A stretch of DNA of 64,000 nucleotides from an uncultured Alphaproteobacteria bacterium (GCA_963730645.1 CAVSSN010000012.1:242853-306852), one strand, 5' to 3'. Positions 3,177 through 60,339 are shown, counted from the stretch's first letter. Numbers and translations are program-made. The notes: generated by a model not told the origin, from the letters alone.

Positions 3177-3924
3177 GGTCGAAGATCACTGCTTCCCCCG
3201 CGCCACGCGGCGCGGGCCGGATGTCGGTGACGCCGAGGTGGGTCTCCAGCATGGCGCGGTCGGCGAGCAGCGCGGCGCTGTCGCCCTCGTGCACCACGCA
3301 GCCGCGCTCGATGATGATGGCGCGGTCGGTGACGCCGAGGATTTTCTTGGCGTTCTGCTCCACCAGGATCGCCGACAGGCCCTCGTCGCGGATGAGGCGG
3401 CGCAGCGCCGCCAAAAGTTCGTCGACGATGATCGGCGCCAGCCCTTCGAGCGGCTCGTCGAGCAGCATGATGCGCGGATTGAGCCCGAGCGCGCGGCCGA
3501 CCGCGAGCATCTGCTGCTCGCCGCCGGAAAGCTGGTTGCCGAGGTTGCCTTTGCGCTCGGCGAGCCGCGGGAACAGCGCATAGATCTTGTCGGTGGTCCA
3601 CGGACCGGGCTGCGCCACCGCGGTGAGGTTCTCGTGCACGGTGAGCGACTTGAAGATGTTGCGCTCCTGCGGCACCCAGCCGACGCCGATGTGCGCGCGC
3701 TGGTCGGGCCGCAGCCTGGTGATGTCCTTGCCGTCGAGCATGATGGTGCCGCCGAAAAAATGCGTGACGCCGACGACCGTGTTGACCAGCGTGGTCTTGC
3801 CCATGCCGTTGCGGCCAAGCAGCGCGAGCGAATGGCCTTCGGCGAGCGACAGCGACACGTTCGAGAGCACCACGGCTTCGCCGTAGCCCGCGCACAGCCC
3901 TTCGATCGTCAACAGGTCAGGCAT
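3145..3924 (-). CDS. livF: branched-chain amino acid ABC transporter ATP-binding protein (LivF type)
   Basis: MPDLLTIEGLCAGYGEAVVL...LLGRNGMGKTT (Walker A) ...LSGGEQQMLAVGRAL...MLLDEP. The tail reads into the family A repeat. Confidence 0.9.
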   Translation of the reverse strand: MPDLLTIEGLCAGYGEAVVLSNVSLSLAEGHSLALLGRNGMGKTTLVNTVVGVTHFFGGTIMLDGKDITRLRPDQRAHIGVGWVPQERNIFKSLTVHENLTAVAQPGPWTTDKIYALFPRLAERKGNLGNQLSGGEQQMLAVGRALGLNPRIMLLDEPLEGLAPIIVDELLAALRRLIRDEGLSAILVEQNAKKILGVTDRAIIIERGCVVHEGDSAALLADRAMLETHLGVTDIRPAPRGAGEAVIFDRHRPRRRTIQ

Positions 3925-4667
3925 CGAGCTCCTCGCCCAGATAGACCGCCTTGACGCGCGGATCGCGCGCGACTTCGTCCGGCGCGCCCTCGACGAACAG
4001 CGAACCGTTGACCAGCACCGAGATGCGGTCGGCGAACGAGAACACCAGATCCATGTCGTGCTCGATCAGCAGCACCGTGACGTCGGCCGGCAATGCCGCG
4101 ATGGTGGCGAGCAGGTCGTGGCGCTCGGCTTCCGGCACGCCCGCCGCCGGCTCGTCGAGCAGCAGCACGTGCGGGCGGCACGCGAAGGCGAGCGCGATTT
4201 CGAGCAGGCGCTGCTTGCCGTAGGGCAGGATCGCGGTGCGCTCGTGCATCACGTCGGCGAGGCGGAAGCGCTCGACGATCTCCACGATCTCGTCGATCAC
4301 CGCCGGCCGGCTGCCGACGAGGCGCCACCAGTCGTGGCCGGCGCCGAGGCGTTCGGACACCGCGAGCCCGATCGTTTCCAGCGGGCGTCAGATCGGCGAA
4401 CAACTGGTTGATCTGGAAGGTGCGCGCCATGCCGAGCCGCACGCGCTCGTGCGGCTCCAGCGCGGTGATGTCCTTGCCGTCGAGCATGATGCGGCCGGCG
4501 GTCGGCTTGAGCACGCCGGTCAGCAGATTGATCACGGTGGTCTTGCCGGCGCCGTTCGGGCCGATCAAAGCGTGGCGCGCGCCCTTCTCGATGCGCAGCG
4601 TCACGTCGTGCGCCGCGATGATGCCGCCGAAGCGCTTTTCGAGACCCACCGCTTCGAGGATCGGCAT
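3917..4667 (-). pseudogene. livG: branched-chain amino acid ABC transporter ATP-binding protein (LivG type); frame interrupted as assembled
   Basis: N-terminal part MPILEAVGLEKRFGG...GPNGAGKTT...RTFQINQLFADLTP lies in the frame of ORF 3909..5189. The continuation LETIGLAVSERLGAGHDWW...LLLDEPAAG... lies in ORF 3917..4360. Length 751 = 3n+1, and the extra base fits the run ggg at 4383-4385. Confidence 0.9.
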
Positions 4668-4669
4668 GG

Positions 4670-5713
4670 TCAGCGGCCCTCGGGCGCGGCGCTTTGCACC
4701 GCCGCCGGGGTGGCGCGTCGCCACGTCGTGAGGCGATCGGCAAAGGCGCGAAACGGCGCCAGCCATTGCGAGATGCGGTCGCGGCCGACCAGCACGATGG
4801 TGATGAGCAGGAGGCCGATCCAGAACTGCCAGTATTGCGGCGTCAGCGTCGCGATATAGTCCTGCATGAATTTGTAGATCACCGCGCCGATCAGCCCGCC
4901 ATAGAGATAGCCGGTGCCGCCGATGATGAGGACGAGCAGGAGATCGGCCGATCGCTCCAGCGACAGCACGTCGAGCGAGCAGAACGCCGTGGTCTGCGTC
5001 AGCAACGCACCGGCGATGCCGGCAAAGAACGCCGAGATGGTGTAGACCGCGACCAGCCGGCCGTTGACCGAAATGCCGACCGCGGCGGCGCGCAGTGCAT
5101 TGCCCTTCACCGATTGCAGCGACAGGCCGAACGGCGAATGCACGATGCGCCGCATGATCAGGAAGCAGACGAACAGCACGATGAGGCAATAGGTGTAGGC
5201 GGTGTGGCCGAACAGATCGAACCGGAACATGCCGAGGATCGGCTGCATGGTGATGCCCTGCAGGCCGTCGGCGCCGCCGGTGAGGTCGGAAAAGCGGTTG
5301 GCGAGTTCGCGCAGCAGCAGCGAGACGCCGAGCGTCACCATCAGCCGCGTCAGGTCGGAGCCGCGCAGCACCAGAAAGCTGGTGACGAAGCCAAGCACTG
5401 CGGCGGCGAGCCCCGCCAGCACCAGCGCAATGACCGGCTCGTTGATGATGGCGTACTTGGCGACAAGGCCGGCGAAATATCCGGCAAATCCGAAGAACGC
5501 CGCATGGCCGAGCGAGATGATGCCGGCATAGCCGAGGATGAGGTCGAGCGAGAGCGCGAACAGCGCGAGGATCGCGGTCTCGGTGAGGATCAGGTGTTTG
5601 CCGGGGAACAGCCAGATGGTGGCGAAGGCGAAGACCCAGAACGCGATTTCGAGCGGCGACCAGCGCGCGCGCCGCGCGAGGTAGCCTTTGACTTCGGTTT
5701 CCAGCGCCGCCAT
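4670..5713 (-). CDS. livM: branched-chain amino acid ABC transporter permease (LivM type)
   Basis: 347-aa polytopic ORF ...SLDLILGYAGIISLGHAAFFGFAGY..., adjacent to livG and livH. Confidence 0.9.
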   Translation of the reverse strand: MAALETEVKGYLARRARWSPLEIAFWVFAFATIWLFPGKHLILTETAILALFALSLDLILGYAGIISLGHAAFFGFAGYFAGLVAKYAIINEPVIALVLAGLAAAVLGFVTSFLVLRGSDLTRLMVTLGVSLLLRELANRFSDLTGGADGLQGITMQPILGMFRFDLFGHTAYTYCLIVLFVCFLIMRRIVHSPFGLSLQSVKGNALRAAAVGISVNGRLVAVYTISAFFAGIAGALLTQTTAFCSLDVLSLERSADLLLVLIIGGTGYLYGGLIGAVIYKFMQDYIATLTPQYWQFWIGLLLITIVLVGRDRISQWLAPFRAFADRLTTWRRATPAAVQSAAPEGR

Positions 5714-8258: not shown

Positions 8259-8584
8259 TTACCCGCCGCCGCTGCGGACGTAGGCCCACAGCGCGTTGAC
8301 ATCCTCAGCGCTGACCTTGTCGCGCCACGGCGGCATGCCGTTGCCTTTGCCGTTGAGCACCGAGGTTGTGAAGCGCTCGGCGGCGTCCTTCGGAAATTTG
8401 CGCAGGTCGAAGGTGAGCGTGCTGGTGTTGACCATGTCGCGGCCATGACACGGCGAGCAGACATCGTTGAAGAGGTCGCGGCCCTGATCGATGAGGTCGT
8501 CATCGGCAGCGTGGGCGCAATCGGGGCGAATACCAAAACTGCAAATGCGGTAACAAGCAAACACTTTGCAATGCAGACTGTCAT
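8259..8584 (-). pseudogene. small periplasmic monohaem cytochrome c; frame interrupted as assembled
   Basis: Signal peptide MTVCIAKCLLVTAFAVLVFAPIAP lies in the frame of ORF 8210..8584. The mature part AHAADDDLIDQGRDLFNDVCSPCHGRDM...GMPPW... (CxxCH) lies in ORF 8259..8618. Length 326 = 3n+2, a net -1 near 8515. The start codon sits inside the family A repeat. Confidence 0.75.
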
Positions 8585-8660
8585 GCCCCGCGAAGGCGGG
8601 GCATCCAGTACTCACCACATTGCGGCGAGTCTACTGGATCGTCTCGCGCTTCGCGAACGC
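8580..8660. repeat. REP/MITE-like element, family A variant
   Basis: GTCATGCCCCGCGAAGGCGGGGCATCCAGTACTC ... CTACTGGATCGTCTCGCGCTTCGCGA. Confidence 0.8.
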
Positions 8661-8720: not shown

Positions 8721-10682
8721 CTACGCGACCTGGAGCGGCGGGACCCACGGCTTGTCGGCCCACGCCACACCTTTGCGCGCGACCTGGACGTCGAGCAGGT
8801 AGGGCTTGCCCTCCACCGTGTGCTGGCGCGCGCGAGCGAGCGCTTCGCGCAGTTGCGCGGGATTCTCCACCACTTCGCCGTCGACGCCGAAACCCTTGGC
8901 GATCGCCGCCATGTTCATGTCGGGGCTGCCGAGATAGTCGTGATAGAATTGCCGCGTCTGCACCATGCGGCCGCTCGGCACGTTGTTGATCACGCGCGAG
9001 TGCGGGCCGCCATAGGCGTGGTTGTTGTAGACCACGACGATGACCGGCAGTTCGAGCCGCGCCATGTTCCACAGCGCCGTCGGGCCGAAGGTGAACGAGC
9101 CGTCGCCGACCATGCAGATGACCTGCTGGTTCGGCCGCGCGAGCTTGACGCCCGCCGACGTGCCGACGCCCGAGCCGAGGTGTGCGCCGTAGTAGAAGAA
9201 CAGCTCGCGGCCGCCGACCGGATTGAAATCGAAACTGTGCAGGTTCACCGAGCCGGCCTCGTGCACGATGATGGCGTCGGGATCGGCGAACTGTGCGATC
9301 TCCCAGGTCAGGCGGTCGGCGATGATCGGCGCCTCGTCCCAGTCCGGGCCATTGACGATTTGCGCGCGGGCGTCCTTCGCCCATTCGCTGAACTTGCGCA
9401 CCTCGACGGCGCGGTCGGTCGCCTTCTGCTTGAGCGAGGCCGTCATCAATTGCCCGACCGCCAGGATCAGATCGTCGAGCCCGTAGCCGACGTCGGCCAC
9501 CAGCGGGACTTCGGTGAGCATCACGTTGCCCATGCTGTTGAAGTCGATGCGCATGTCGATGAATTTCGGCCCGCGCGGCACCAGCGGCGTCGGGCCGCTA
9601 TGCTGGAACTTGTTGCCGATGTTGATCACCACGTCGGGGTTCTTCGGGAAGGTCAGCTTGCCGAGCGTGTTGCCGGCGAGGTTGCCGACCCAGAGCGGAT
9701 GGTTTTCCGGGAAATTGGCGTAGAGCTGGCGCACCTGCGTCACCGGCATGCCGAGCATTTCGGCGAGCTTGATCGCCTTGGCGGTGGCCTTCGCCTTGTA
9801 GATCTCGTCGCCGACGACCATCAGCGGCATCTTGGCTTCGACCAGAAGCTTCGCGGCGCGCTGCACCTCGTCCGGGTTCGGACCGCACGCGCATGCGCGG
9901 ATCGATCTGCACCTGATCGATGATCTCGGTGCGCACACGTTCGTCGTTGTAGTCGGAATGCCAGGAGATGTAGGCGGGACCGTAAGGCGGCGTCCACGCC
10001 GCCTTGTAGGCGCGTCGCACGGTCTCCGGGATCATGTCGGGGCGTTGCGCCAGCCAGGTGTACTTGGTGATCGGCTGGACCATCTGTTCCTGGTAGGCGA
10101 CCTCCTCGAAGCCGTCGCGTCCGGCGCGGCGCGACTGGTCGGTGCGGTAGGAGTAGAACGACGAGCGGCGTCTGCTCCTTGAACGCGTTGAACATCTGGC
10201 CGATGGCGTTGGCCATGCCGACGACGCCCGCCTGCATGACCATGGCGGGCTCGCCCGAGGCCTTGACGTAGCCGGCAGCCATGGCGGCGCCGGGTCCTTC
10301 GTGCGGCGTGAGGATGTATTTGAGCTGCGGACGATCGACCAGCGCCTCATAGAACTGCGCATCTTCGCTGGCCGAATTGCCGAACACGTATTTCACGCCC
10401 GAGGCGATGAGCTGCTCGGCGAAGCACGCGCCGCCTGGCCCTGGAATGCTTTCACGCCGGCGACGGCGGCGCGGCACTCGCTGCGGCAGGCGCTGCCGGC
10501 GCAGCGGCGGCGGGCGCGGCGGGCGGGGGAGTCGGGCCGGCGCCTTGCGCGTAGCTCACCGAAGTGACCGCGCTGAGCACGGATTGCGCCGCGGTCGCGG
10601 TGAGGCCGGCCTTGGTCAGGCCGCTCACGAAGCCGCGCCGGGAAATGGAATGCGACAGGTATTTGACGACCAGCTCTCTCAT
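8721..10682 (-). pseudogene. thiamine-diphosphate-dependent enzyme (acetolactate synthase / pyruvate oxidase superfamily) with N-terminal twin-arginine signal; three frame interruptions as assembled
   Basis: Tat signal MRELVVKYLSHSISRRGFVSGLTKAGLTATAAQSVLSAVTSVSYA plus a Pro/Ala linker (ORF 10452..10682). Pyr domain ...KYVFGNSASEDAQFYEAL...TPHEGPGAAMAAGY (ORF 9821..10477). Middle part ...FYSYRTDQSRRAGRDGFEEVAYQEQMVQPITKY... (ORF 9598..10362). Central and PP domains with GDGSFTFGPTALWNMARLELPVIVVVYNNHAYGG (ORF 8721..9938). Frames step 2>1>0>2, giving three +1 shifts near 10455, 10160 and 9892. Confidence 0.85.
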
Positions 10683-10710
10683 CGTTCGCTCCCTGAAATC
10701 CGTTGCATCG

Positions 10711-11029
10711 TCACGCTGGACGCACTTGCTCTTTTGCTATTTCGCCGCCAGCCGGCTTCACGTTCGGCCCGAAGTCGGTGCCGAGGTAGTCCGCCATCAA
10801 CTTGACCTCGTCCGGCGTCCACAAACCGCCGCGGCCGATCATGCGATAGATCGTGGCTTCCCAGCCGCGCCGTTCCTGGCGGTGATCGCGGAACATCGCG
10901 TCGGTGTGGCACTGGAAACATTTGCCCATCACCAGCGCGCGGCCCGGAAGCTCCGGTTGCTGCGCCGATGCCGGCGCGGCCAGCGCCAAGCGGCGCACAG
11001 GCCAGCAGAATTTTTGGCCAGATCGTCAT
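10711..11029 (-). pseudogene. small periplasmic monohaem cytochrome c; frame interrupted as assembled
   Basis: ATG at 11029 sits behind GGGGAG and starts MTIWPKILLA.... The mature part ...LALAAPASAQQPELPGRALVMGKCFQCHTDAMFRDH... (CxxCH) lies in ORF 10711..10998. Length 319 = 3n+1, with the shift near 11000. Confidence 0.7.
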
Positions 11030-11215
11030 TGCATCTCCCCCGTTTGGCGTGCGTCGCGCGCGTCGTGCGCTCACGGCCGGATCGATTGAACGGCATGGTA
11101 GTCCAACGCCCGCCTAGGCGCCAGACGAGCGAGCGACTTCGCAGCCGCGCGAAGCGTGCTAACATTGACGAAAATAGGCGAAGATCTGAAGACACGAAAC
11201 AGGAGGAGGCACCCG

Positions 11216-12217
11216 ATGGCCAAGATCGTGCTCGGGCTCGGATCATCCCACACGCCGATGCTGCTCGCGTCCGACGAGACGCTGCCGCTCTTTCTCGAGA
11301 CCGATCAGAAGATCAAGCACCGCGACAAGGAGGGCCGGCCCGCCACCTACGCCGAGCTTCTGGAAAAGGCCGACCCGAAGATGGCCGATATGGTGGCGCC
11401 GGCGCAGCTCGCCGCACGGCAGAACAAGGCGCGCGACGCGACTGCGCGTCTGGGCAAAACGCTCAACAGCGCCAAGACTCGATGCGCTCATCGTTTTGAG
11501 TGACGACCAGGACGAAGCCTATCTGGAAGACGCCCGGCCGACCTTTGCGATCTATTACGGCGATACGATCATCAACAGCAACGAGCAGCACGAGCAATAC
11601 CACCAGCGCTTCCCGGAATGGTACGTGAAGAACCGGCAGGCCTTTTTCGAGGACAACAAGCCGCGCGCCTATCCGGTCGACAGCAAGCTTGCCGTTCATC
11701 TCATCGATTGGCTGATGGACAACGGCTTCGACCCGGCGTCCTCGAAGCGCATGCGCGAGGGCGAAGGCGAAGGCCACGGCATGGCCTATGTGCACCGCCG
11801 CCTGATGGAGGGGAAAAACCCGATCCCCATCGTGCCGGTGTTCCTCAACACCTATTTTGCGCCGAACCAGCCGCGGCCGAAGCGCTGCTATGAATTCGGC
11901 CAAGGCCATCCGCAAAGCGGTCGAGAGCTACGCCGGCGATGCGCGCGTCGGCATCATCGCGTCGGGCGGCTTGAGTCACTTTCTGGTGGACGAGGATTTC
12001 GACCGCGCGATTTTGAAAGCGTGCGCCGACAAGGACGCGACATTTCTGCAGAACCTGCCGCGCAACAAGCTCAATGCCGGCAGCTCGGAAATCCTCAACT
12101 GGGTCGGCATCGCCGGCGCGCTGCGAGCATCTCGACCTGAACTGGTTCGAATACGTGCCCGGCTATCGCACGCCGGCCGGTACCGGTACCGGATTGAGCT
12201 TCGCAAGCTGGGCGTAA
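11216..12217 (+). pseudogene. class III extradiol ring-cleavage dioxygenase (LigB family); three frame interruptions as assembled
   Basis: MAKIVLGLGSSHTPMLL... (ORF 11156..11503), then LDALIVLSDDQDEAYLEDARPTFAIYYGD...GHGMAYVH... (ORF 11496..12140), then [34 protein letters not shown]... (ORF 11857..12234), then EHLDLNWFEYVPGYRTPAGTGTGLSFASWA stop. Frames step 2>0>1>2, with +1 shifts near 11477, 11900 and 12124. Confidence 0.8.
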
Positions 12218-13739: not shown

Positions 13740-14709
13740 TCACTGCGGCTGGATGCCGGCGGCCTTGAGCACCGGGCCCCACTTCTCGTACTCGTCGTGA
13801 ATGAGCTTGGCGAACTCGTCCGGCGTCGAGCCGATCGGCGATGCGCCGAGCTGGAGCATGCGCTCCTTCACGTTCGGCAGCTTCGCGACTTCGGCGCAAT
13901 CCTTGGCGAGCTTGTCCTTCACCGCAGCCGGAATGTGCGCGGGCGCAAGAAAGCCCCACCACACGCCGGTGTCGTAGCCCGGCAGCGTCTCGGCGATGCT
14001 CGGCACATCCGGCAGCACCGGCGAGCGCGCCGCGGTCGTCACGCCGAGCGGGCGCACCGCGCCGGCTTTGACCTGCGCGATCGATTCCGGAATGTTGTTG
14101 ATCGACATCGGAATGTGGCCGCCGAGCAGATCGTTGAGCGTCGGCGCGCCGCCTTTGTAGGGCACCGGCGTGATGTCGACCTTGGCCATGTACTTGAGCA
14201 GTTCGCCGGCGAGATGCGGCGAGGTGCCGTTGCCGGGATGGCCGTACGACAGTTTGCCGGGCGCCGCGCGCGCCGCATCGATCACGTCCTTGACCGACTT
14301 GTACGGCGAGTCGGCGCGCACCAGCAGCATGTTCGGCGAAGTGCCGATCAGCGAGATCGGCGTGAAATCGTTGAACGGGTCGTACGGCAGCTTGGCGTAG
14401 AAATGGCCGTTGAGCGCGTGGCCGGTGGCGACGACGATCAGCGTGTAGCCATCGGGCGGCGACTTCGCCAGCGCTTCCTCGGCGATGATGCCGCCGGCGC
14501 CCGGCTTGTTCTCGATCACGATCGACTGGCCCCAGCGCTTCGACAATTCGTCGCCGAGCGTGCGCGCCACGATGTCGACCGCGCCGCCGGGCGGATAGGG
14601 CACGAGGATGCGGACGGAGCTGGGAGGGGTAGGCGTCCTGGGCGAGCGCATCGGCAGCGCCGAGTACCGTGAACGCGGCGGCGACGCAGATCCGAATCCA
14701 GACGATCAT
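13740..14709 (-). pseudogene. Bug/TctC-family tripartite tricarboxylate transporter substrate-binding protein; frame interrupted as assembled
   Basis: Signal peptide MIVWIRICVAAAFTVLGAADALAQDAYP lies in the frame of ORF 12805..14709. The mature part SSVRILVPYPPGGAVDIVARTLG... lies in ORF 13740..14651. Length is 3n+1, and the extra base fits the run gggg at 14627-14630. Confidence 0.88.
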
Positions 14710-14753
14710 GGATGTCCTCCCAAATTATTGCTGCTGCAGCCGCTCGTTCGACT

Positions 14754-16523: not shown

Positions 16524-16528
16524 ACGGC

Positions 16529-17953
<1,425 letters not shown>

Positions 17954-18105: not shown

Positions 18106-19022
<917 letters not shown>

Positions 19023-21594: not shown

Positions 21595-21599
21595 GCTCG

Positions 21600-24222: not shown

Positions 24223-24256
24223 GAAAACTGCCGCATTCGCCAACAAGGATTCAGGC

Positions 24257-28006: not shown

Positions 28007-28009
28007 CGC

Positions 28010-29213: not shown

Positions 29214-29267
29214 TAGCCACATTTGCCGGATGTGCTAGAAGCCACCCCATAAACCAGGAGAAGAACC

Positions 29268-31511: not shown

Positions 31512-31568
31512 GAGCGCGATCGCTGTCGATATAGTTTGCGTTCGGGCGTTGCGTATCAGAGGTAAGAA

Positions 31569-34802: not shown

Positions 34803-34900
34803 TACTTAACGCTCCCGTGCTCCGACGCCAGCCACCGGCATCATTGGGTTAATAGTTTGTTGGCCTCTGTGGCGATGTGCAGAAAATCGAAGCGAAAAAG

Positions 34901-36707: not shown

Positions 36708-36751
36708 CGAATCGACCCTTTCCTGCGCGTTTTTTGCTAGCGTGCCCCGCC

Positions 36752-42839: not shown

Positions 42840-42890
42840 CTGAATAAGAGACATGACGCGGCCGCGAAATGCAATGCGCCAAGTAATCAC

Positions 42891-44023: not shown

Positions 44024-44363
44024 AGCGACCTCCCAGCGTTGGGCCGCATCGACGCTCTCACGCGCTAACACGACCGGTTGATGGAGGCGGGATTTGTTCG
44101 GCCCGCCATCAGCGTGGCGCTGGGGCAGGCCCCGGCGTTTTAGCTGCATTTGTTACGCGCCCGCAAGCTGCTCGCTCAAATCGGCGCTAGTTTTATTCTT
44201 TAGACAAGCTCGGAAATCCGGTCAATGGAAATTTATTCTACAATATCGCGCATATTGGTAGATATTTCTAGCGATGCCGCCGTTGTCTTTGACCGTTTTC
44301 CAGCGATCGTGCCGCCTGCCGGGCGGTGACAGCGCCAAGCGCCTCCGCTATGCCGTTGACGTC

Positions 44364-47175
44364 ATGCTCGACCCGCAACATGCCGCGCCCGCGACCGCCG
44401 AACTGATCGATGTCGCGGCAATCGCCGCCGATCTCGACAAGCTCGCCGACATCCATTCCGGGCACGAGCGCGAATTGCGCACCGCGGTCGCGCAGCGCCT
44501 GAAGGCGGCGTTGACGCAGGCGCGCACGCAGGCCGAGCAGCTGCTGCTCAAGGACCGGCACGGGCGGCGCTGCGCCGAGCGGCTGTGCCAGGTGCAGGAC
44601 GAGATCATCCGCATCCTGTTCGAATTCGCCGGCACGCAGCTCTACCCGTCGCAGAACCCGTCGGAAGCCGAGCGCATGGCGGTGATCGCCACCGGCGGCT
44701 ACGGCCGCGGCCTGATGGCGCCGGGCTCCGACATCGATCTGTTGTTTCTGCTGCCGTACAAGCAGACCGCCTGGGGCGAATCCGTCGCCGAGGCGATCCT
44801 CTATTGCCTCTGGGACATGGGGCTCAAGGTCGGCCACGCCACGCGCTCGGTCGACGAGTGCATCCGCCAGGCCAAGGCGGACATGACCATCCGCACCGCG
44901 CTGCTCGAAGCGCGCTACCTGTTCGGCGACGCCAAGCTCTACGACGAGCTGACCACGCGTTTCGACAAGGACATCGCGCAGGGCACCGCGGCGCAATTCG
45001 TTGCCGCCAAGCTCGCCGAGCGCGAGGAGCGCCATCGCCGCGCCGGACAATCGCGCTATCTGGTCGAGCCCAACGTCAAGGACGGCAAGGGCGGGCTACG
45101 CGACCTGCACACGCTGTTCTGGATCGCCAAGTACGTCTACCGCGTGCGCGAGCCCGAGGAGCTGATCGAGCGCGGCGTGTTCGACCGGGACGAATACAAT
45201 CTGTTCCGGCGCTGCGAAAGTTTCCTGTGGTCGGTGCGCTGCCACATGCATTTCGTCACCGGCCGCGCCGAGGAGCGCCTGTCGTTCGACATCCAGCGCG
45301 AGATCGCGGTGCGGCTCAACTACACCGAACATCCGGGGCAGAAGGACGTCGAGCGGTTCATGAAGCATTACTTCCTGACCGCCAAGCACGTCGGCGATCT
45401 CACCGCCATCCTGTGCGCCGGCCTCGAGGAGAGCCAGGCGGTGCCGGCGCCGGTGCTCAGCCGCGTCATCGCGCGGCTGCGCCCCGGGCGCGCAAAACGG
45501 CCGCTCACCGAGAGCGACGATTTCGTCGTCGACAACAACCGCATCAACATCGCCGATCCGGACGTCTTCAAGCGCGATCCGGTCAATCTGATCCGGCAGT
45601 TCCACCTCGCGCAGAAGCACAATCTCGCCTTCCATCCCGACGCCATGCGGGTCGCAACGCGCTCGCTCAGATTGATCGATCAGGAATTGCGCCGGAACGA
45701 AGAGGCGAACCGCCTGTTCTTCGAAATCCTGACCTCGACCAACGATGCCGAAACGGTGCTGCGGCGCATGAACGAGGCTGGCGTGCTGGGCGCCTTCGTT
45801 CGCGCGTTCGGCCGCATCGTGGCGATGATGCAGTTCAATATGTACCACCACTATACGGTGGACGAGCATCTGCTGCGCTGCATCGGCGTGCTCAGCGAAA
45901 TCGAGCGCGGCGAAAATCCCGAATTCCAGTTCGCCAACGAACTCATGCGCACGATCCGGCCGGAGCATCGCGCGGTGCTCTACGTCACGCTGTTTCTGCA
46001 CGACATCGCCAAGGGCCGCCCCGAGGACCATTCGATCGCGGGCGCGCGCGTCGCGCGGCGCTTCTGTCCGCGTCTCGGATTTTCGGCGGCCGATACCGAA
46101 CTCGTCGCCTGGCTGGTCGAAGTGCATCTGGTGATGTCGACGGTGGCGCAATCGCGCGACCTTTCCGACCGCAAGACGATCGAGAACTTCGCCGCCGTCG
46201 TGCAGTCGCTGGAGCGCATGAAGCTTCTCACCATCCTGACCACCGCCGACATCCGCGCGGTCGGGCCCGGCGTGTGGAACGGCTGGAAGGCGCAGCTTCT
46301 TCGCACGCTTTATTACGAGACCGAGCCGGTGCTCACCGGCGGCTTCTCCGAGGTCAACCGCGCGCAGCGTGTGGCGATGGCGCAGGCCGAGTTCCGCGCC
46401 GAAATGAAGGACTGGCCACCCGAACGGCTGGAGGCCTTCATCGCGCGGCAATATCCGGCCTATTGGCTCAAGGTCGACCTGCCGCACAAGGTGGCGCAGG
46501 CGCATTTCGTGCATGCGACCGAGTCGGCGGACAAGACGCTCGCGACCAGCGTCGGCTTCGACGCCGTGCGCGGCGTCACCGAACTGACCGTGCTCGCGCC
46601 CGACCATCCGTGGCTGCTTTCGATCATCGCCGGTGCGTGCGCGGTCGGCGGCGCCAACATCGTCGATGCGCAGATCTACACCACGACCGACGGGCTTGCG
46701 CTCGACACCATCTCGCTGTCGCGCGAATTCGAGCGCGATGAGGACGAAGCGCGCCGCGCCGCGCGCATCGGCGATGCGATCGAGACGCGCGGTGCGCGGC
46801 CAGCTTCGGCTGCCGGACGTCATCGCCAAGCGCGCGGCGCCGAAGGGTCGGATCAAGGCCTTCGCGGTCGAGCCGGAGGTCTCAATCAACAACCAGTGGT
46901 CCAATCGCTACACCGTGGTCGAAGTCACCGGCCTCGACCGGCCGGGCCTGCTCTACGAACTCACCACCACGTTGTCGAAACTCAACCTGAACATCGCCTC
47001 CGCCCACGTCGCCACTTTCGGTGAGCGCGTGGTCGACGTGTTCTATGTCACCGATCTTTTGGGCGCGCAGATCACGACGCCGACCCGTCAGGCGGCGATC
47101 AAGCGCGCGATCATTCCGCTGTTCACCGCAGCCGCCGCCGACGCCAAAATGGCGACGGAAGCGGCCGCGAGTTGA
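44364..47175 (+). pseudogene. glnD: [protein-PII] uridylyltransferase/uridylyl-removing enzyme GlnD; frame interrupted before the ACT domains as assembled
   Basis: ...ATGGYGRGLMAPGSDIDLLFLLPYK... with the HD domain ...HHYTVDEH...LFLHDIAKG... lies in ORF 44274..47024. ...RGQLRLPDVIAKRAAPKGRIKAFAVEPEVSINNQWSNRYTVVEVTGLDRPGLLYEL... lies in ORF 46633..47175. +1 shift near 46785-46792. The start could also be the ATG at 44274. Confidence 0.92.
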
Positions 47176-47604: not shown

Positions 47605-47882
47605 TTACTTCTTCGCCGCGTACGGCTTCGCCAACCCGTCGTTCAGGATCCAGAACATGTGGAGCGTATCCTGGCAGCACGGCTGCGGAGCAGTGTAGGC
47701 CACCGCCGCCGGAGCGACGTAAGGCTTCCACGTATTCTGCTTCGCCAATCCGTCGTTCAGGATCCAGAACATGTGCAGCGTATCCTGGCAGCACGGCTGC
47801 GGAGCCGCGCTGGCAGCCCGCGCCAGACGACGACGCCAGCGCGACGAACGCAACCGCAGTCAAAAGTGCAGCTCGTACCCAT
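47605..47882 (-). pseudogene. small secreted hypothetical protein with two CCQDTLHMFWILNDGLAK modules; N-terminus split over frames as assembled
   Basis: ORF 47605..47853 carries ...AASAAPQPCCQDTLHMFWILNDGLAKQNTWKPYVAPAAVAYTAPQPCCQDTLHMFWILNDGLAKPYAAKK. A signal-like segment LLTAVAFVALASSSGA lies in the frame of ORF 47582..47863. The ATG behind GGGGGGA at 47882 lies in the third frame. Length is 3n+2. Confidence 0.5.
47625..47805. repeat. tandem direct duplication (two 67-nt copies, 114-nt period) inside the CCQDT gene
   Basis: Copies at 47625-47691 and 47739-47805 differ at 2 positions (GCTTCGCCAAnCCGTCGTTCAGGATCCAGAACATGTGnAGCGTATCCTGGCAGCACGGCTGCGGAGC). Confidence 0.9.
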
Positions 47883-48120
47883 CAATCCCCCCTATGTCGC
47901 TTCCGGAAAAGTTTCCGGAAAATTTATGATGTCCCTAAACGGGACGATATGGAAGCCGAAATCGTTGCGGCCAAACCACACTTCGCACAGATTTTTTCGG
48001 AGGTGTGCCATCAGTGCATCGGGGCCGGCCAGGACTGCGGCCCGAGCCCGGCGGGCCAAGCGGTAACCACCCCTTAAATCGCGCTCTCTACCGTGCCGGC
48101 GGGGCGCAATCGCGCTCCCC

Positions 48121-50286: not shown

Positions 50287-52450
50287 TCACATCGTCTTGC
50301 GCAGGTCGTGGTGCTTCAGCGGCAGCGAGCGGATGCGCTTGCCGGTGGCGGCGAACACGGCGTTGCACACAGCGGGCGCCAGCGGCGGCAGCGGCGGCTC
50401 GCCGATGCCGCCCCAGAAACCACCGCTCGGCACCAGCACGGTGATCACCTCCGGCATGTCGGCCATCTTCAGCATCTCGTAGTCGCTGAAGTTCGATTGC
50501 TCGACGGCGCCGTCCTTGACGGTGATCTCGCCGTAGAGCGCCGCGGTGAGACCGTAGACGATCGCGCTCTGGACCTGCATTTCGATCGACAGCGGGTTGA
50601 CGACGTAGCCGCAGTCGATCGCCACGACCACCCGGTGCACACGCACCTTGCCGTCGCTGCCGACCGATATCTCGGCCACGTGCGCGCAGATGCTGTTGCC
50701 GCCTTCGTTGATCGCGATGCCGCGGAATACGCCCGGCGGCAGCGCGCCGTCCCAGTCGGCCTTGTTCGCCGCGGCGTCGAGCACGGCGAGATGTTTGGGC
50801 TGCGTCCGCAACAGTTTGCGCCGATAGCGATAGGGGTCCTGGCCCGCCGCATGGGCCATCTCGTCGATGAAGCTCTCCTTGAAGAAGGCGTTCTGCGTGT
50901 AGTTGACAGCGCGCCAGACGCCGATCGGCACATGCGTCGGCCGCGTGGAAAAATCGAGCAGAATATTCGGCACGTCGTAGGCAAATTCCTCGAGCAGGCC
51001 CTGAAGGAAGTTCCTGTCGATGAAGCCCTTGAGCATGCCCGGCACCATCGACGACACGATCGGTGGACCCGAAAGCCGCATTTTCAATGCGACCGGCAGG
51101 CCGGCCGCATCGAGGCCGGCGCTGAAGCGGGCCATGACCGCCGGACGATAAAAATCGTGCTGGATGTCCTCCTCGCGCGTCCACACCAGCTTGACCGGCT
51201 GGCCAACCGCTTTGGCGATGATGACGGCCTCGCGAATGTATTCCTGCACCGAGCCGCGCCGGCCGAAGCCGCCGCCGAGCATCATCGCGATGGACCACGG
51301 CGTTGCTGTTCGGCAGACCGGCGGCGGCGGCGGCCGTCGCAAGCGCCGTTTCGGCGTCCTGCGTCGGCACCCAGACCTCGACCCGTCCGGGCGTGACGTG
51401 CGCGGTGCAGGTCTGCGGCTCCATGGTCGCGTGCGCGAGGAACGGAACGCTGTATTCGGCCTCGATCCGCTGGGCGGCGCCGGCGAACGCCGCGGCGACA
51501 TCGCCGGTCGATTGCGCAACAGGCGCATCGGCCGCATCGAGGCCAGCGCGAATGTATGCGCCGATCGATTCGCTCGACACCTGGCCGTTGCCGCAGTCGT
51601 CCCAGATGACCGGCAGCGCGTCGGCCGCGCGTTTGGCCCGCCACCAGCTATCGGCGACGACGGCGACGGCATCCGGCAAGCGCACGATGTGCCGGACGCC
51701 CTTCATGTCCTTGACCGCTGTTTCGTCCACCGCCTTCAACCGGCCCTTGAAGACGGGGCAGTGGACGATCGCCGCGTAAAGCATGTCCGGCAACCGGACG
51801 TCGATGGCGTAGATCGGCTTGCCGGTGACTTTGTCGGCGATCTCCAGCCGCCGGCGCGGGGTGCCGGCAAGCTTCCAGTCCTTGGGGTCTTTGAGCTTCA
51901 CCTCTTTCGGCGGCGCCATCCTGGCGGCGTCTTCGGCGACCTCGCCGAACGTCAAGCGCCGCTCGCTCGGGGCGTGGGTGATGACGCTGTTGGCGGCAAT
52001 GCATTGCGTCGCCGCCACGCCCCAGCGCGCGGCAGCCGCCGCAATCAGCATTTCACGCGCGGCGGCGCCGGCCTCACGCAAGTCGTGTTGCGATGCAGAG
52101 ATCGAGCGGCTGGCGCCGGTCGACATGTCGCCCCAGACGCGCTGGCGGAGCGCGTTCGCCTCCGGTGCGACGAATTCCAGCCGGACCTTGTTCCAGTCGC
52201 ATTCAAGCTCTTCGGCGACCAGCATGGCGAGGCCGGTGGACGCGCCCTGCCCCATCTCGGCGCGGGCGACCCGGACGATCACGGCGTCGTCCGGCTGGAT
52301 CACGACCCAGCAGTTGATTTCGGGCGGGCCTTCGTCGGTACTCGCCGGCGCGGGACTGCGCGCAATGGCAATTCCCAGTGCAAGCCCGCCACCCGCGGCG
52401 CCTGCACCAACCAGGAACGTTCGGCGACTAAGCTGGCCGCCGGACCTCAT
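50287..52450 (-). pseudogene. molybdopterin-binding oxidoreductase subunit (IorB / aldehyde oxidase-xanthine dehydrogenase family) with Tat signal; frame interrupted as assembled
   Basis: MRSGGQLSRRTFLVGAGAAGGGLALG...VVIQPDDAVIVRVARAEMGQGASTGLAMLVAEELECDW...GLPNSNAVV (ORF 50126..52477), then IAMMLGGGFGRRGS...VVAIDCGYVVNPLSIEMQVQSAIVYGL... (ORF 50287..51672). +1 shift near 51294. Confidence 0.85.
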
Positions 52451-54550: not shown

Positions 54551-55403
54551 TTACACATCCCACGCCGGTGCGCGGCCGGCCGGATTGGCGATGCGGCTGT
54601 TGGGCCGCTTGAGCGCGCTGATGCGGCGCATGTCGTCGTCGCTGAGCTCGAAATCGAATACGGCGAGGTTTTCGGCGATGCGTTGCGGGTTTGACGAGCG
54701 CGGAATCGGTGCGATGATTTTCTGCTGGATGAGCCAGCGCAGCGCCACCTGCGCGAAGGTCTTGCCGATACGGCTGCGCGATGTCGGCGAGCACCGGATC
54801 GTTGTTGAGCCGGCCGCGCGCCAGCGGGCAATACGCGGTGAGCACCAGCCCGCGCTGTCGGCATGCCGCGATCAGCCTGGTCTGGTCGAGATAGGGGTGA
54901 CATTCGGCCTGCAGCGTCACCAGAGGCTCCGGGCACAGCCGGATCGCCTCATCGACCATCGCGATGTTGAAGTTGGCGACGCCGATGTGGCGCGCGAGGC
55001 CGCCGCGCTTGGCCTTGGCGAGCGCGCCCATGGTCTCGGCGAGCGGTGTGTTTTTCTCCGGCCAGTGCACCAGCAGCAGATCGACGTAGTCGACGCCGAG
55101 CGTCGTCAGGCTTTCGTCGACCGAGCGGGCAAAATCATCGGCGTGCAGATATTCGTGCGACACCTTGGTGCACAGGAAAATCTCCTGGCGCGGGACGCCG
55201 GAGGCGCGCATGCCTTCGCCGACGGCGCGCTCGGAGCCGTATTTCCGGGCCGTATCGATGTGGCGGTAGCCGGCCTTCAGCGCGGCGGCGACGTGCTCGG
55301 CGTGCACCTCGCCGCCCAGTTCGGACGTGCCATAGCCGATCGCGGGAATTTCGGCGCCGTGCGCCGCGAGCTTTGGGGCAAGGCTTTTGGGAGCGAGGAT
55401 CAT
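54551..55403 (-). pseudogene. aldo/keto reductase; frame interrupted as assembled
   Basis: MILAPKSLAPKLAAHGAEIPAIGYGTSELG...GYRHIDTARKYGSE...LLLVHWP...ADIAQPY (ORF 54474..55403), then [46 protein letters not shown]... (ORF 54551..54748 frame). +1 shift near 54766. Confidence 0.88.
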
Positions 55404-55487
55404 GCCGGCATCCTAGACCGCGTCATCGTGAGGCGTGCTATGTTTTATCGGGTTCGAAACGGACTTGCACGCCGGGGAGGACACACG

Positions 55488-56583
55488 ATGACGCAATCGC
55501 TCCAATCCGATGGCCCGCGGCCGCGGCAAGAGCTGATCGACGGCGCGTTCGTGCGCAATGCCTGGTACGTGGCGGCATGGTCGGACGACATCGGCGACGG
55601 CCAGCTCGTCGCCCGCACCATCATGGACGAGCCGATCGTGCTCTATCCGCAAGGCCAATGGCGATGTTGCGGCGATCGAGGACCGCTGCGCGCACCGCTT
55701 CGCGCCGCTGCACATGGGCAAGATCGTCGGCGGCGATCGCATCCAGTGCGCCTATCACGGCCTGGAATTCGACGGCACCGGTGCATGCGTGCGCAATCCC
55801 CACGGCAGCAAGAACATTCCGCCGCGGGCGCGCGTGAAAAGCTACCCGGTCATCGAGAAGCACAAGGCGATCTGGATCTGGATGGGCGCCGCGCCGGCCG
55901 ATGCCGCCAAGGTGCCGGACTTCGGCGTGCTCGACAACGTGCCCGAGCTGCACACCACCAAGCGCGACAGCATCGTGATCCGCGCCAATTACCAGCTCAT
56001 CATCGACAACCTGCTCGACCTCAGCCACACCTCGTATCTTCACGAGGGCATTCTCGGCAATGCAGACACCGTGGAATCGGAGATCAAGGTCGAACAGGAC
56101 GGCGACGACGTGGTGGTGGAGCGGCACGCCACCAATTCGGCTCCGCCCGGCATGTTCGCGCAGTTCTGGCCGGATCATCCGCCGCGCGTCGACAAGTTCA
56201 CCAACATGCGCTGGATGGCGCCGAGCACGCTGCGACTGGTCACCGGCATCTGCAAGATGGGCGCGCCGCCCGACAGCGGCACCGGCTATCACGCGATCCA
56301 CATGCTCACCCCGGAGAACGGGCGCTCGACGCTCTATCATTTCACCGCGGTGCGCTTCGGCGTCATGACGACCGACGAGAAGCTCAATCGCGAGCTGCAG
56401 GACAAGGTCGGGAAGATGCGCCGTTTCGCGTTCGAGGAGCAGGATGCGCCGGTGATCGAAGCGCAGCAGCGCGTCATCGAGAGCGCAACGACAACGCTCG
56501 ATCCGCTGGTGCTGGCCATCGATGTCGGGCCGGTGCGCTACAAGCGCATCCTCGGCAAGATGCTCGAAGCCGAGCAGCGCTGA
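55488..56583 (+). pseudogene. Rieske [2Fe-2S] aromatic oxygenase, VanA/phthalate-family oxygenase component; frame interrupted as assembled
   Basis: GGGGAGGA RBS. MTQSLQSDGPRPRQELIDGAFVRNAWYVAAWSDDIGDGQLVARTIMDEPIVLY (frame of ORF 54585..57236), then RKANGDVAAIEDRCAHRFAPLHMGKIVGGDRIQCAYHGLEFD...NLLDLSHTSYLH... (ORF 55558..56583). +1 shift near 55647. Confidence 0.85.
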
Positions 56584-57945: not shown

Positions 57946-58719
57946 TCAGTGCTGCGCGCCGTTGTCGTCCGGCAGACCGTAGCGGTGCAGATCGGCGCCG
58001 TGCACGTCGAGCCACACTTTTGCGCGCTCGTGCGCGGGGCACAGCCGGCTGACCAGCCGCCAGAATTTCGCCGAATGGTTCATCTCGACGAGATGGGCGA
58101 CCTCGTGCGCCGCGAGGTAATCGAGCACGAACGCCGGCGCGAGAATGAGCCGCCACGAGAACGACAACGAGCCGGTGGTCGAGCACGAGCCCCAGCGGCT
58201 CGACTGATCGCGTACCGCGACTTTCTTGACGGTGACACCGAGCTCGGCGCCGAACCGGCGGCTGGCGATCTCAAGCTCGCGCCTGGCCTCGCGGCGCAGA
58301 AAGTCGGAGATGCGGCGATCGACATGCGGCGCCTCGCCGGCGACGCAGAGCAGGCGCTCGCCGTCCTCGCCGGTTTCGCTCCACACCGTGCCGCGCGCGC
58401 CGCGGCGATGCACGATGCGATGCTGCACGCCGCGCAACGGCACCACGATGCCTTGTGCGAACGGCGCCGCCTTCGGCAGCCGTCCGAGCCGCGCCGCGAT
58501 CCAGCTGCCGTGCTTCTGCGCGAACTCGCGCGCTTCCTTCAGGCTGCCGCGCGGCGGAATGGTGAGCACGACCTCGCGCGTCGCCGCCTGGATGCGCAGC
58601 GTGTAGCGGCGCGCCTGACGATGCCGGCGCATGCGCACGAGATAGATCGCGCGGTCGAAGACGATTTGAATCGTCCGCGGTTCGCTCGGGCGACGATAGA
58701 GCAGCGCGCGCAGCGGCAT
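57946..58719 (-). CDS. YgjP-like (DUF45) M48-type metal-dependent hydrolase
   Basis: ORF 57946..58767. ...RWGSCSTTGSLSFSWRLILAPAFVLDYLAAHEVAHLVEMNHSAKFWRLV... contains HExxH. Start is M17 (58719) or M1 (58767). Confidence 0.8.
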   Translation of the reverse strand: MPLRALLYRRPSEPRTIQIVFDRAIYLVRMRRHRQARRYTLRIQAATREVVLTIPPRGSLKEAREFAQKHGSWIAARLGRLPKAAPFAQGIVVPLRGVQHRIVHRRGARGTVWSETGEDGERLLCVAGEAPHVDRRISDFLRREARRELEIASRRFGAELGVTVKKVAVRDQSSRWGSCSTTGSLSFSWRLILAPAFVLDYLAAHEVAHLVEMNHSAKFWRLVSRLCPAHERAKVWLDVHGADLHRYGLPDDNGAQH

Positions 58720-59045
58720 GATGACGTCTTGTTCCCACCCAACCCGGGGAAATAGTGCCATATCCATTTTCCGGCGCAGCCCCCTTCGGTGCGGCCTCGT
58801 CGACCTACAAGATATTGTGGCCTGTCGGTTGATAAAGGGCTAAGTCGTGAACTGGAACAACTGAATGCAACTTCATATTTTTTGATTTCAATCGAGTCGA
58901 AAATCGACTCCGAAGCAGCCGAAAATACCAAACGCGATTCAATCGCTTATGAACGAACGTCGGTGTTCAGGCCGGTTTTATTGAGAAATATGACAATCAG
59001 GCCGCGCACGACCCGGGGAGGGCCGCGCCAAGACCGGCGCCGCAA

Positions 59046-60339
59046 TCAGGCTCGCTGCAGAGCCGTCACGTTGCGGGCGCGCGAGACCGTCGCGCCTTGA
59101 TTATGCGACAGCACGAAATCGGCGATGCGCGGCGCGATCTCGGAACGGAAGCGCGAGCCGTTGAACACGCCGTAATGGCCGACGCCGTGCTGCATCCAAT
59201 GCACCTTGTTCTCGGCCGGAATGCCGGTGCACAGCCGATGCGCCGCTTCGGTCTGGCCGAGACCGGAAATGTCGTCGTGCTCGCCCTCGATGGTGAGCAG
59301 CGCAACGCGCTTGATCTTGGCCGGCGCGATCAGCCGGCCGCGATGCGTCATCTCGCCTTTCGGCAGATCGTGGCGCACGAACACGACATCGACGGTCTGC
59401 AGATAGTATTCGGCCGCGAGGTCCATCACGGCGAGATACTCGTCGTAGAATTCCTTGTGCTTGTGCGCGCTATCGCCGTCGCCCTGCACCAGTTCCATGA
59501 ACAATTGCTTGTGCGCCTCGATGTGGCGATCGAGGTTCATGCTGACGAAGCCGTTGAGCTGCAGGAAGCCCGGATAGACATCGCGCATGAAGCCCGGATG
59601 CGGGAACGGCACCTTGGTGATGACATTGCGGCGGAACCAGTCGCTGCCGCGCTGTTCCGCCAGCGTGTTGACGACGGTCGGATTGACGCGGGTATCGATC
59701 GGGCCGCCCATCAGCACCATGGAATGCGGCACGCAGGGGTCGTGGTCCGCCTCCATGAGCGAGACGGCCGCCATCACCGGCACCGACGGTTGACACACGG
59801 CGACGACGTGCGTGCCGCCACCGAGGTGGTGAAAAATGGAGATCAGATAGTCGACGTAGTCGTCGAGATCGAAGCGCCCTTCCGCCAGCGGCACCATGCG
59901 CGCGTCGGCCCATTCGGTGATGTAGACATCGTGATTGGGCAGGAACGCCTCGACCGTGCCGCGCAGCAAGGTGGCGTAATGGCCCGACATCGGCGCGACG
60001 ATGACGAGGCGCGGCTGCGGGCGCTTCGGCGGATGCTCCAGCACGCGCTCGAAATGCAACAAGCCGGCAGAAGGGCCGCTCCCACACGGTCTTGATTTCG
60101 ACCGGCACGCGCTCGCCGCCGACCAGCGTGGTGTCGATGCGCCATTCCGGCCGGCTGTAGCGGCGCGTCGAGCGCTCGAACAACTCGGCCGCGGCCGCGA
60201 CCGTCTTGCCGTAGGTCGTGAACGACAGCGGATTGACCGGATTGCGGAAGAACAGCCGCGTGGCGTCAGCCCATATGCGCGACGGGTTTAGCGCCGCCTG
60301 GCCCATTTCGTAGAACCAGTACATCGGCGTCGAGAGCAT
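59046..60339 (-). pseudogene. phaZ: intracellular polyhydroxyalkanoate (PHB) depolymerase; frame interrupted as assembled
   Basis: ...MLSTPMYWFYEMGQAALNPSRIWADATRLFFRNPVNPLSFTTYGKTVAAAAELFERSTRRYSRPEW...VWERPFCR (ORF 59470..60450), then LLHFERVLEHPPKRPQPRLVIVAPMSGHYATLLRGTVEAFL... (ORF 59046..60062). +1 shift near 60064. The start (60339 or 60324) is uncertain. Confidence 0.85.

Follow-up and report, generated by a model that had tools for sequence, protein, structure and literature searches.

Bacteria that have lately become restricted to a host (such as Mycobacterium leprae or Sodalis) undergo genome decay, which leaves nonsense codons, deletions and frameshifts, with a deletion bias and under relaxed selection. 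Mutation-accumulation lines deleted for mutS acquire mainly transitions and single-base indels in homopolymers, the latter at a rate that rises with run length and with no strong insertion bias (Dillon et al., PMC5854121). Spurious pseudogenes arising from assembler, platform and coverage are common as well (Cooley & Wright 2024, PMC11017572); in long-read assemblies, indels in the consensus shift the frame of called genes, and polishing is required for bins with less than about 40-fold depth (Sereika et al. 2022, PMC9262707). The errors of raw PacBio continuous long reads are dominated by insertions (about 8%, against 3% deletions; bioRxiv 10.1101/2021.08.23.457338). The subject here is a stretch of 64,000 nucleotides from an uncultured Alphaproteobacteria bacterium (GCA_963730645.1 CAVSSN010000012.1:242853-306852; the window), part of a public 335-kb metagenome contig, in which about 29 genes are interrupted by about 49 frame disruptions, nearly all of them single extra bases. 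These disruptions are real in the deposited sequence; in the living genome they very probably do not exist, and would represent spurious bases introduced by the consensus of the metagenome assembly.

The window has 65% GC throughout, and its host appears to be an uncultured Xanthobacteraceae/Pseudolabrys-like alphaproteobacterium, the N-terminal part of MutS being at most 81% identical to metagenome-assembled genomes (MAGs) of this kind. An earlier note, made from the sequence alone, had counted about 45 disruptions in about 30 genes, with about 40 insertions and 3-5 deletions, and had offered two readings: consensus error in the assembly, which it preferred, and recent pseudogenisation, conceivably linked to a lesion in mutS.

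Number, direction and distribution of the frame disruptions

Reading frames were tracked with a seven-state codon-usage Viterbi path, trained on the long intact open reading frames (ORFs) of the window. The path makes 57 same-strand frame switches, ordinary gene boundaries included; 42 are of the class produced by one extra base and 15 of the other class. In the segment translations, family-typical sequence continues in the next frame, as in livG near 4386, in mutS near 38710, and in glnD near 46785, before the ACT domains. Profile searches and comparison with relatives give the same picture: single profile alignments continue over the junctions of the joined proteins, and the ORFs of relatives align collinearly across frames.

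The total of about 49 events (range about 45-50) is spread over 4.4-60.1 kb, and at least 40 events are one extra base. Comparison with close relatives, which spans 16.3-57.2 kb, confirms base by base 35-36 of the events, lying between 16.9 and 55.6 kb; these include 34 single extra bases, with doubles in ligB (16876-7) and beside a substrate-binding protein (SBP) gene (43037-8). About 14 further events (livG 1, cytochromes c 2, a thiamine diphosphate (ThDP) enzyme 4, a LigB-family dioxygenase 3, the first of two Bug receptors 1, a 446-aa repeat protein 2, phaZ 1) are placed by profiles, by relatives at about 85% identity or by coding potential, the last being the sole basis for the 446-aa repeat protein. 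Direction is strongly one-sided: a list of 45 events holds 39 of +1, one of +2, four of the -1 class and one undecided (binomial p = 2e-8), so that insertions stand to deletion-class events as 40:4. The overall counts of the earlier note, for disruptions, genes and direction alike, are thus upheld. Its counts per gene stand for fcs (6), the second Bug gene (3), and ligI, pcaJ and pcaI (2 each); the ThDP enzyme has four events instead of three, and the hypothetical gene at 35.6-36.7 kb has three, against a stated "at least 2". The uneven density that it remarked upon finds mild support, in that events are somewhat over-dispersed (variance-to-mean ratio 1.65-1.95, p about 0.014), six fall within the 1.9-kb fcs gene (p = 0.003), and the window is quiet at its ends, in 0-4 kb and 60-64 kb.

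A junction detector was also applied, in which the ORFs of relatives are aligned to the window with tblastn and adjacent pieces in different frames mark a junction. Outgroup ORFs came from the mutS region of other genomes (80 loci) and from the ThDP region in JGI data (80 contigs); in both sets, the offsets between adjacent pieces are nearly always congruent to +1. The relatives found in the mutS scan of genome contigs have at most 81% amino-acid identity and served as outgroups, not for base-level polarity, and in the metagenome scan around the ThDP gene synteny is limited to a three-gene cassette (8.2-11.0 kb). The detector yields 0.28 junctions per kb in the window, 0.96 per kb in a sister contig from the ENA (described below), and 0 in most Illumina and isolate relatives. 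One control locus, from a long-read MAG (L022; MFD04212.bin.3.74 contig_1560), shows 6 junctions in 12.7 kb, four of the insertion class and two of the deletion class. Exact-protein look-ups with five ORFs of the window gave no match, megablast of 25 kb against plasmids returned only pcaIJF at about 75% identity, and the window holds no tRNA or rRNA gene to serve as an independent check on indel errors.

Comparison with close relatives

The relatives used at base level are 89-97% identical to the window in DNA. The ENA sister contig (ERZ25039457:contig_5979, 25 kb; L081/L162), found by exact-protein look-up with the intact amidohydrolase, is 94-95% identical to the window over 15.5-39.1 kb. 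The JGI contigs L164 (96% DNA identity, 8.8 kb aligned) and L163 (89-91% DNA identity, syntenic over 16.3-36.2 kb) were reached by a search with the fcs-like protein, rebuilt minus the six bases that are extra in the window. A glnD search led to the JGI contig L165 (GlnD 97% identical) and to L166, an ENA contig of 788 kb (ERZ25039534:contig_43068; GlnD 99%, DNA 96-97% identical).

All 35-36 gene-breaking insertions that are covered are absent from L163, L164, L165 and/or L166, most of them from every covering reference, and in these four independent contigs the genes are full length where covered. The fcs-like acyl-CoA (feruloyl-CoA) synthetase gene (26111..28006, plus strand) illustrates the pattern: it has extra bases at 26728 (G), 27135 (A), 27430 (C), 27616 (T), 27669 (G) and 27798 (C), which in a four-way alignment form six columns filled in the window only, with flanks that are invariant in three relatives. 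Removal of the window-extra bases restores an open frame of 639 codons, and the resulting protein of 629 aa aligns to NF009232 in one stretch (positions 9-621 of 624, 817 bits, above the family cut-off) and has counterparts of exactly that length among JGI proteins, with 96%, 93% and 91% identity.

The asymmetry extends to whole alignments. Over 8.8 kb the window has 19 single bases that L164 lacks, and L164 none that the window lacks; in a control pair, two JGI contigs aligned to each other, the counts are 3 and 4. Set against L164, the ENA sister contig likewise has 15 single and 4 double extra bases, and L164 has no single base that the sister contig lacks. When the window and the sister contig are aligned to each other, the window shows 42 single bases not found in the sister, and the sister 40 not found in the window: the genes of the sister contig are fragmented too, elsewhere, the window being in frame at the sister's sites and vice versa. 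Compared with the relatives of the glnD region, the window alone carries the extra bases at 42755, 43163, 46785, 51288, 54778 and 55645. In the assemblies of two related populations this unusual kind of lesion occurs at largely different sites, and independent assemblies carry none or very few. Removing all window-extra bases blindly over-corrects, since mutS is then broken at 37340, which is truly a deletion in L081; the events were therefore polarised one by one.

Selection and the nature of the inserted bases

When the window is compared with L081, the ratio of non-synonymous to synonymous differences (pN/pS) lies at 0.03-0.3 for fragments on either side of the shifts, upstream as well as downstream. 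It is 0.036, 0.055 and 0.034 in the fragments of fcs, 0.039 in the short-chain dehydrogenase/reductase (SDR), 0.118 and 0.098 in the enoyl-CoA hydratase (ECH), and 0.162 and 0.169 in mutS, the latter value belonging to the ATPase half downstream of its shift; values near 1 are found only for fragments that the Viterbi path places in the wrong frame. Around the ECH insertion, which is shared with the ENA sister contig, 13 changes are synonymous and 4 non-synonymous. These ratios rule out old pseudogenes. The 14 proteins that were conceptually repaired contain 0 in-frame stop codons. Decay or a mutator would yield many more substitutions than indels and hence some nonsense codons, an expectation that is estimated here, not computed.

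In 37 of the 45 cases within genes the inserted base matches neither neighbour (run length 1), against 51% expected under random insertion. The inserted bases have a genome-like composition, and their flanks are conserved and non-repetitive. The proposal of the earlier note that the extra base extends a mononucleotide run is therefore not borne out by these 45 sites, and one of its examples, T6 at 36182-36187, is mistaken, the extra base being a G at 36173; homopolymer slippage is ruled out likewise, as the inserted bases lie mostly outside runs. Search for a sequence motif enriched at the insertion sites found none, and methylation- or restriction-type motifs (GATC, CCGG, GGCC, GCGC, CGCG) occur there at expectation. 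Retention of both alleles of a single-nucleotide polymorphism in the consensus is ruled out by the invariant flanks of the six fcs insertions.

Probable origin of the extra bases

We consider it very probable that the disruptions are errors of the assembly consensus, the reading that the earlier note had favoured: relatives are intact, the sister contig carries a different set, purifying selection acts before and after the shifts, nonsense codons are missing from the repaired proteins, and insertions are in large excess. The consensus would carry about 0.7 spurious bases per kb on the whole, rising to about 2 per kb where it is worst, nearly all of them single insertions, with few one-base deletions, in conserved non-repetitive sequence; such errors would strike genes regardless of importance, mutS and glnD included. 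Each insertion would shift the frame and lead ORF callers to split or mis-extend about 29 genes.

As to the cause, a low-depth or poorly polished consensus of noisy long reads seems likely. The contigs of the ENA relatives carry Flye-style names (contig_N), and the accessions of the two ENA assemblies are 77 apart. The 25-kb contig has about 2 errors per kb, the 335-kb contig 0.7 and the 788-kb contig roughly 0.2 (the last an estimate from the few L166-extra bases in genes), a decrease that would agree with errors depending on depth. Among the nearest GTDB representatives are many Nanopore MAGs from a single large soil project, which used Flye and one round of Medaka (PMC12313526); the window may or may not come from this project. 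The insertion bias resembles raw PacBio continuous-long-read error more than the homopolymer indels reported for Nanopore consensus.

Several points weigh against this explanation. The artefact is deduced from comparison and not observed in reads, depth or platform data. The relatives, at 89-97% identity, are not of the same strain; they show that the genes are normally intact in the lineage, strictly not that they are so in this population. Errors that are insertion-only and outside homopolymers differ from the usual Nanopore consensus type (homopolymer indels, PMC9262707), and any error mechanism is therefore tentative. The roughly 14 events listed as outside 16-57 kb stand on profiles or more distant relatives only. 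Finally, purely random consensus noise does not predict that five insertions are shared between assemblies, or that one short loop of mutS is broken in three of them; these two observations bear directly on the alternatives.

Shared insertions, the mutS loop and alternative explanations

Five insertions of the window, at 20879, 23435, 24426, 31290 and 36046, are identical in the ENA sister contig, and absent from the JGI contigs and, where covered, from L166. The one at 24426 lies in the ECH gene (24250..25061, plus strand), as one extra base at 24422-24427 in the context CCGGATCGACG; L163 and L164 have an intact 268-aa protein without this base, and outgroup ORFs align to the window in two frames. 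The mutS gene (36830..39500, plus strand) has an extra G at 38711/38712 (CTCT[G]CGG), in a loop (38700-38730; about 20560-20600 in L081 and about 4340-4370 in L166) formed by the GC-only palindrome GCGGCCGGCCGC. The joined MutS protein aligns to NF003810 across the junction (2-793 of 793, 992 bits), and mutS is in frame in relatives at about 80% amino-acid identity. Within about 15 nt, the loop is frame-broken in three ways: by the extra G in the window, by a lesion about 8 nt away in the sister contig, and in L166 by a sequence 2 nt shorter than that of the repaired window. L166 is otherwise nearly free of frameshifts, yet its mutS loop is broken.

These observations could be taken to mean that most events are consensus errors and a minority true mutations or polymorphisms, the candidates being the five shared insertions, the mutS-loop lesion or both. 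In favour of such a mixture, 5 of about 30 comparable insertions are exactly the same in two assemblies that are 5% apart, and three different lesions lie close together in the loop, one of them in the near-clean L166. We nevertheless regard it as unlikely. L164 (96%) and L166 (97%), which are without the shared insertions, are at least as near to the window as the ENA sister contig is (95%), and common descent is therefore not the simple reading of the shared bases. Since, in addition, ECH is constrained on either side of its insertion, a context-dependent systematic error is tentatively favoured over inheritance. L081/L162 and L166 probably come from the same platform and pipeline, and the contig of the window may do so too, so that systematic error accounts for the sharing equally well. 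For the mutS loop, its nature as a GC-only palindrome points in the same direction, and an error hot spot is the simplest reading. That some of these lesions are real in a stronger sense, the mutS loop being hypermutable in a phase-variable-like manner that yields mutator subpopulations, or shared insertions (e.g. ECH 24426) being inherited and tolerated frameshifts, or both, is in our estimate very unlikely.

Genuine recent pseudogenisation would mean real insertions in about 29 genes, brought about by loss of mismatch repair through the mutS frameshift or by genome decay. The position of that frameshift, just before the Walker A motif, would suit this explanation, as would the breakage of the same short loop in three related assemblies; and the proportion of about 2 indels to about 50 substitutions per kb between the window and L081 is not in itself beyond natural ranges. 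Even so, we hold it to be highly improbable. The mutS lesion can hardly be used as the cause, because it is itself an insertion of the artefact class and the ATPase half downstream is as constrained as the half upstream (0.17 vs 0.16), and the link to mutS suggested in the earlier note is accordingly not sustained. A ratio of 40:4, with 37 of 45 insertions outside any run, is unlike the spectrum of mutS-deletion lines (PMC5854121), and the ratio of insertions to deletions is opposite to that of natural decay or mismatch-repair loss. About 49 frame disruptions without one nonsense codon (in the 14 repaired proteins checked), pN/pS of 0.03-0.06 in the fcs fragments and low throughout downstream of shifts, the involvement of core housekeeping-type genes such as glnD, the intact genes of close relatives, and the fact that the sister contig's lesions, which are of the same odd type, largely do not overlap those of the window all stand against it. 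A further possibility, that the insertions are real and the genes remain functional through bypass during expression (programmed +1 frameshifting, transcriptional slippage or editing), can practically be dismissed: genes whose products were still made would be expected to show the purifying selection seen before and after the shifts, but the sites have no slippery run, shared motif or stop-codon context and are not conserved, relatives simply being without the base and only five sites being shared with one sister assembly, and about 49 different contexts would need bypass, for which we know of no such general mechanism in bacteria.

Affected genes

The other affected genes are described here in order of position. 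At the left end of the window, the gene for a livG-like ABC ATPase (3918..4692, minus strand) has one shift of the extra-base class near 4386 (Viterbi switch at 4385/6); Pfam ABC_tran aligns in one piece, residues 28-181, over the junction at residue 101, and no close relative covers the site. A cytochrome c gene (8262..8640, minus) has a -1-class shift near 8515-8540, its signal peptide lying in another frame; this shift was located by three-frame translation against JGI homologues, and is weaker because only the signal peptide is upstream of it. The Tat-signal ThDP enzyme (8724..10690, minus) shows four events: +1 at about 9880, +1 at about 10150, a deletion at about 10440, and a -1-class shift at about 10480-10510. 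The deletion removes one base from a C/G run (GGGCC-CAGG, against GGGCCCCGG in relatives, by DNA alignment), and the second -1-class shift sits in an Ala/Pro linker. JGI ORFs of about 85% identity give four collinear tblastn pieces here, in frames -3, -1, -2 and -3, and on the joined protein the Pfam N, M and C domains follow in order, the profile alignment of TPP_enzyme_N crossing a junction. In a second cytochrome c gene (10741..11020, minus), three-frame translation against JGI homologues places a +1 shift at about 10985-10995, between signal peptide and mature part. The LigB-family (class III extradiol) dioxygenase (11214..12210, plus) has three +1 shifts near 11475, 11897 and 12125 in the Viterbi path; NCBIfam NF009901 (residues 89-318) and NF009913 (residues 68-256) align across the junctions, as does Pfam LigB in a single alignment, and the C-terminal part continues in the next frame. 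The first Bug/TctC receptor (13743..14710, minus) has a +1 shift at about 14615-14630 (Viterbi), where the signal peptide meets the TctC domain; the Pfam TctC match (residues 46-317) lies downstream of the junction, which itself is outside the profile.

In the aromatic-degradation region, ligB, encoding a protocatechuate 4,5-dioxygenase beta-like protein (16545..17539, minus), has two extra bases, CA, at 16876-16877, which L162 and L163 lack; LigB of L163 is intact at 299 aa, and Pfam LigB aligns across the junction (5-268 of 269). The ligI-like amidohydrolase gene (18122..18966, minus) has extra bases at 18715 (A) and 18739-18741, neither of them in L081/L162 or in L163, where the gene is intact (289 aa). 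The CoA-transferase subunit genes follow: in the pcaJ-like one (20830..21601, minus) the extra bases are at 20879 (T, also in the ENA sister contig) and 20915/6, both missing from L163 and L164, and the JGI genes are intact at 257 aa; in the pcaI-like one (21602..22462, minus) they are at 21688 (A) and 21961-21964, missing from L081, L163 and L164, and their removal restores an open frame of 295 codons, the JGI genes having 286 aa. The second Bug/TctC gene (22654..23618, minus) has extra bases at 22768-22770, 23390-23393 and 23435-23438, the last also in the ENA sister contig; removal of the window-extra bases restores 319 open codons, and the intact JGI genes encode 353 and 368 aa. Downstream of fcs, the SDR gene (28007..28772, plus) carries an extra base at 28074 (C), not found in L081, L163 or L164, without which 254 codons are open (JGI gene 253 aa), and the 4HBT thioesterase gene (28781..29215, plus) one at 29006 (G), not found in L081 or L163, where the gene is intact with 143 aa in both.

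Between 31 and 37 kb, a gene for an hfaA-like small secreted protein (31121..31534, plus) has an extra base at 31290 (G), present in the ENA sister contig and absent from L163, so that signal peptide and C-terminal part are read in different frames. The ialB gene (32539..33250, minus) has one at 33014 (G), which is in neither L081 nor L163; IalB of L163 has 236 aa. In the adjoining gene for a 446-aa repeat protein (33466..34810, minus), Viterbi path and three-frame translation alone indicate two compensating shifts between about 33880 and 34017; these are candidate events, unconfirmed because the stretch (33572-34710) does not align to relatives. The repeat-rich secreted protein beside ialB has 1039 aa in a JGI relative (L163 17385-20504) and about 446 aa in the window; the difference could reflect variation in repeat number or a repeat collapsed in assembly. 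The gene for a 148-aa repeat protein (35137..35582, plus) has extra bases at 35323-35328 and 35376-35381, each stepping the frame by one, which are not in L081, L163 or L166; the protein is intact, with 147-148 aa, in L163 and L166. In a conserved hypothetical gene (35637..36720, minus), the extra bases at 36031 (G), 36046 (C, also in the ENA sister contig) and 36173 (G) make a net change of +3, and the outer parts are therefore in the same frame; in L166 the gene is intact (356 aa).

In the right half, the gene for an SsuC/TauC-like ABC permease (42008..42870, minus) has an extra base at 42755/6, absent from L165 and L166 (JGI gene intact, 276 aa). The gene for the SsuA-family SBP (43040..44030, minus) has an extra G at 43163 and an extra GA at 43037-43038, beside the stop region; TIGR01728 aligns across the junction (10-288 of 290), and both L165 and L166 encode an intact protein of 330 aa. 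In glnD (44340..47160, plus), an extra A at 46785 (ATCGAG[A]CGCGCGG) is found in neither L165 nor L166. GlnD is intact there with 936 aa, at 97% (JGI) and 99% (ENA) identity, and reads ...GDAIERAVRGQ... over the site; the joined protein of the window aligns to NF003467 in one stretch with 1469 bits. A small secreted protein with a CCQDT motif and an internal duplication (47605..47890, minus) has an extra G at 47875 and a two-base difference at 47825, for which the evidence is weak, as the gene is short and variable. The gene for an iorB-like molybdopterin subunit (50287..52450, minus) has an extra C at 51288, not in L165 or L166, where the protein is intact with 720 aa in both; Pfam MoCoBD_1 spans residues 275-507 across the junction at 349. 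Only L166 is the reference for the following two genes: that of an aldo/keto reductase (54552..55403, minus; extra G at 54778, intact at 283 aa in L166, Pfam Aldo_ket_red 2-289 of 291 across the junction) and that of a Rieske/VanA-like oxygenase (55480..56583, plus; extra A at 55645, intact at 364 aa in L166, NCBIfam NF052579 residues 25-213 across the junction at 54). The last affected gene, phaZ, for an intracellular polyhydroxyalkanoate depolymerase (59047..60450, minus), has a +1 shift near 60067 (Viterbi, and tblastn junctions from three queries with offset +1); TIGR01849 aligns over the junction at residue 107 (2-403 of 406, 603 bits).

Other features of the window

Some features lie beside the genes discussed. 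The CCQDT-motif protein has a paralogue, the two small secreted proteins being encoded at 47209-47469 and 47605-47890 (minus), and in the latter an internal stretch of about 29 residues is duplicated in tandem, PQPCCQDTLHMFWILNDGLAK being present twice. A SAM-II riboswitch (SAM_alpha, RF00521; 44120-44197, minus) scores 41 bits against a gathering score of 36, and lies directly upstream of an operon for an SsuA-like SBP, an SsuC-like permease and an ATPase (41.2-44.1 kb). This arrangement suggests that the operon may encode a sulfur- or methionine-related ABC importer regulated by S-adenosylmethionine. REP-like intergenic elements occur at 16416-16544, 39496-39657 and 53277-53383; with translations such as CHCEERSDEAIQ, LDCFAALAMT and similar, they were taken by the frame tracker as short pseudo-coding segments. 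Three tandem paralogues resembling the C-terminal domain of MetE (1-2941, minus) are all intact.

Consequences for gene calls

This organism is best treated as having intact lig, pca and fcs genes for aromatic degradation, intact transport genes, and an intact mutS and glnD. About 40% of the genes in the stretch are mis-called, as the earlier note had expected of naive ORF calling, and one product has already become a public protein entry. At 65% GC, out-of-frame tails stay open far, and chimeric "proteins" would arise as a consequence: the ORF of 916 aa at 44274-47024 (plus), which joins GlnD to an out-of-frame tail of 80 residues, is identical over its full length (100%) to the public protein P0126 (NCBI, ENA), whose recorded contig of 335,106 bp is the one from which the window comes. 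Pseudogene counts, metabolic reconstruction and dN/dS on this MAG need prior frameshift-aware correction or polishing; an insertion-only signature outside homopolymers would escape polishing heuristics that focus on homopolymers.

Comparison with known systems

With decay of the Mycobacterium leprae or Sodalis type, the window has in common that a large fraction of genes is interrupted; it differs in its insertions, in the lack of stop codons among the repaired proteins, in strong purifying selection and in orthologues that are intact at 96-99% identity. With a mutS-deletion mutator it shares the dominance of single-nucleotide events among indels and the presence of a mutS lesion, but neither the concentration in homopolymers nor the excess of transitions, and hence of nonsense codons, is seen. 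Consensus errors of Nanopore assemblies are usually linked to homopolymers, whereas those proposed here are nearly all insertions, mostly outside homopolymers and of genome-like composition. The closest likeness is to the pseudogenes that arise from assembly error (PMC11017572, PMC9262707; proovframe, 10.1101/2021.08.23.457338): there, too, many frameshifts occur in one assembly while near relatives are intact, their density varies between related assemblies, gene calls are fragmented or over-extended, and frameshift-aware alignment to homologues repairs them.

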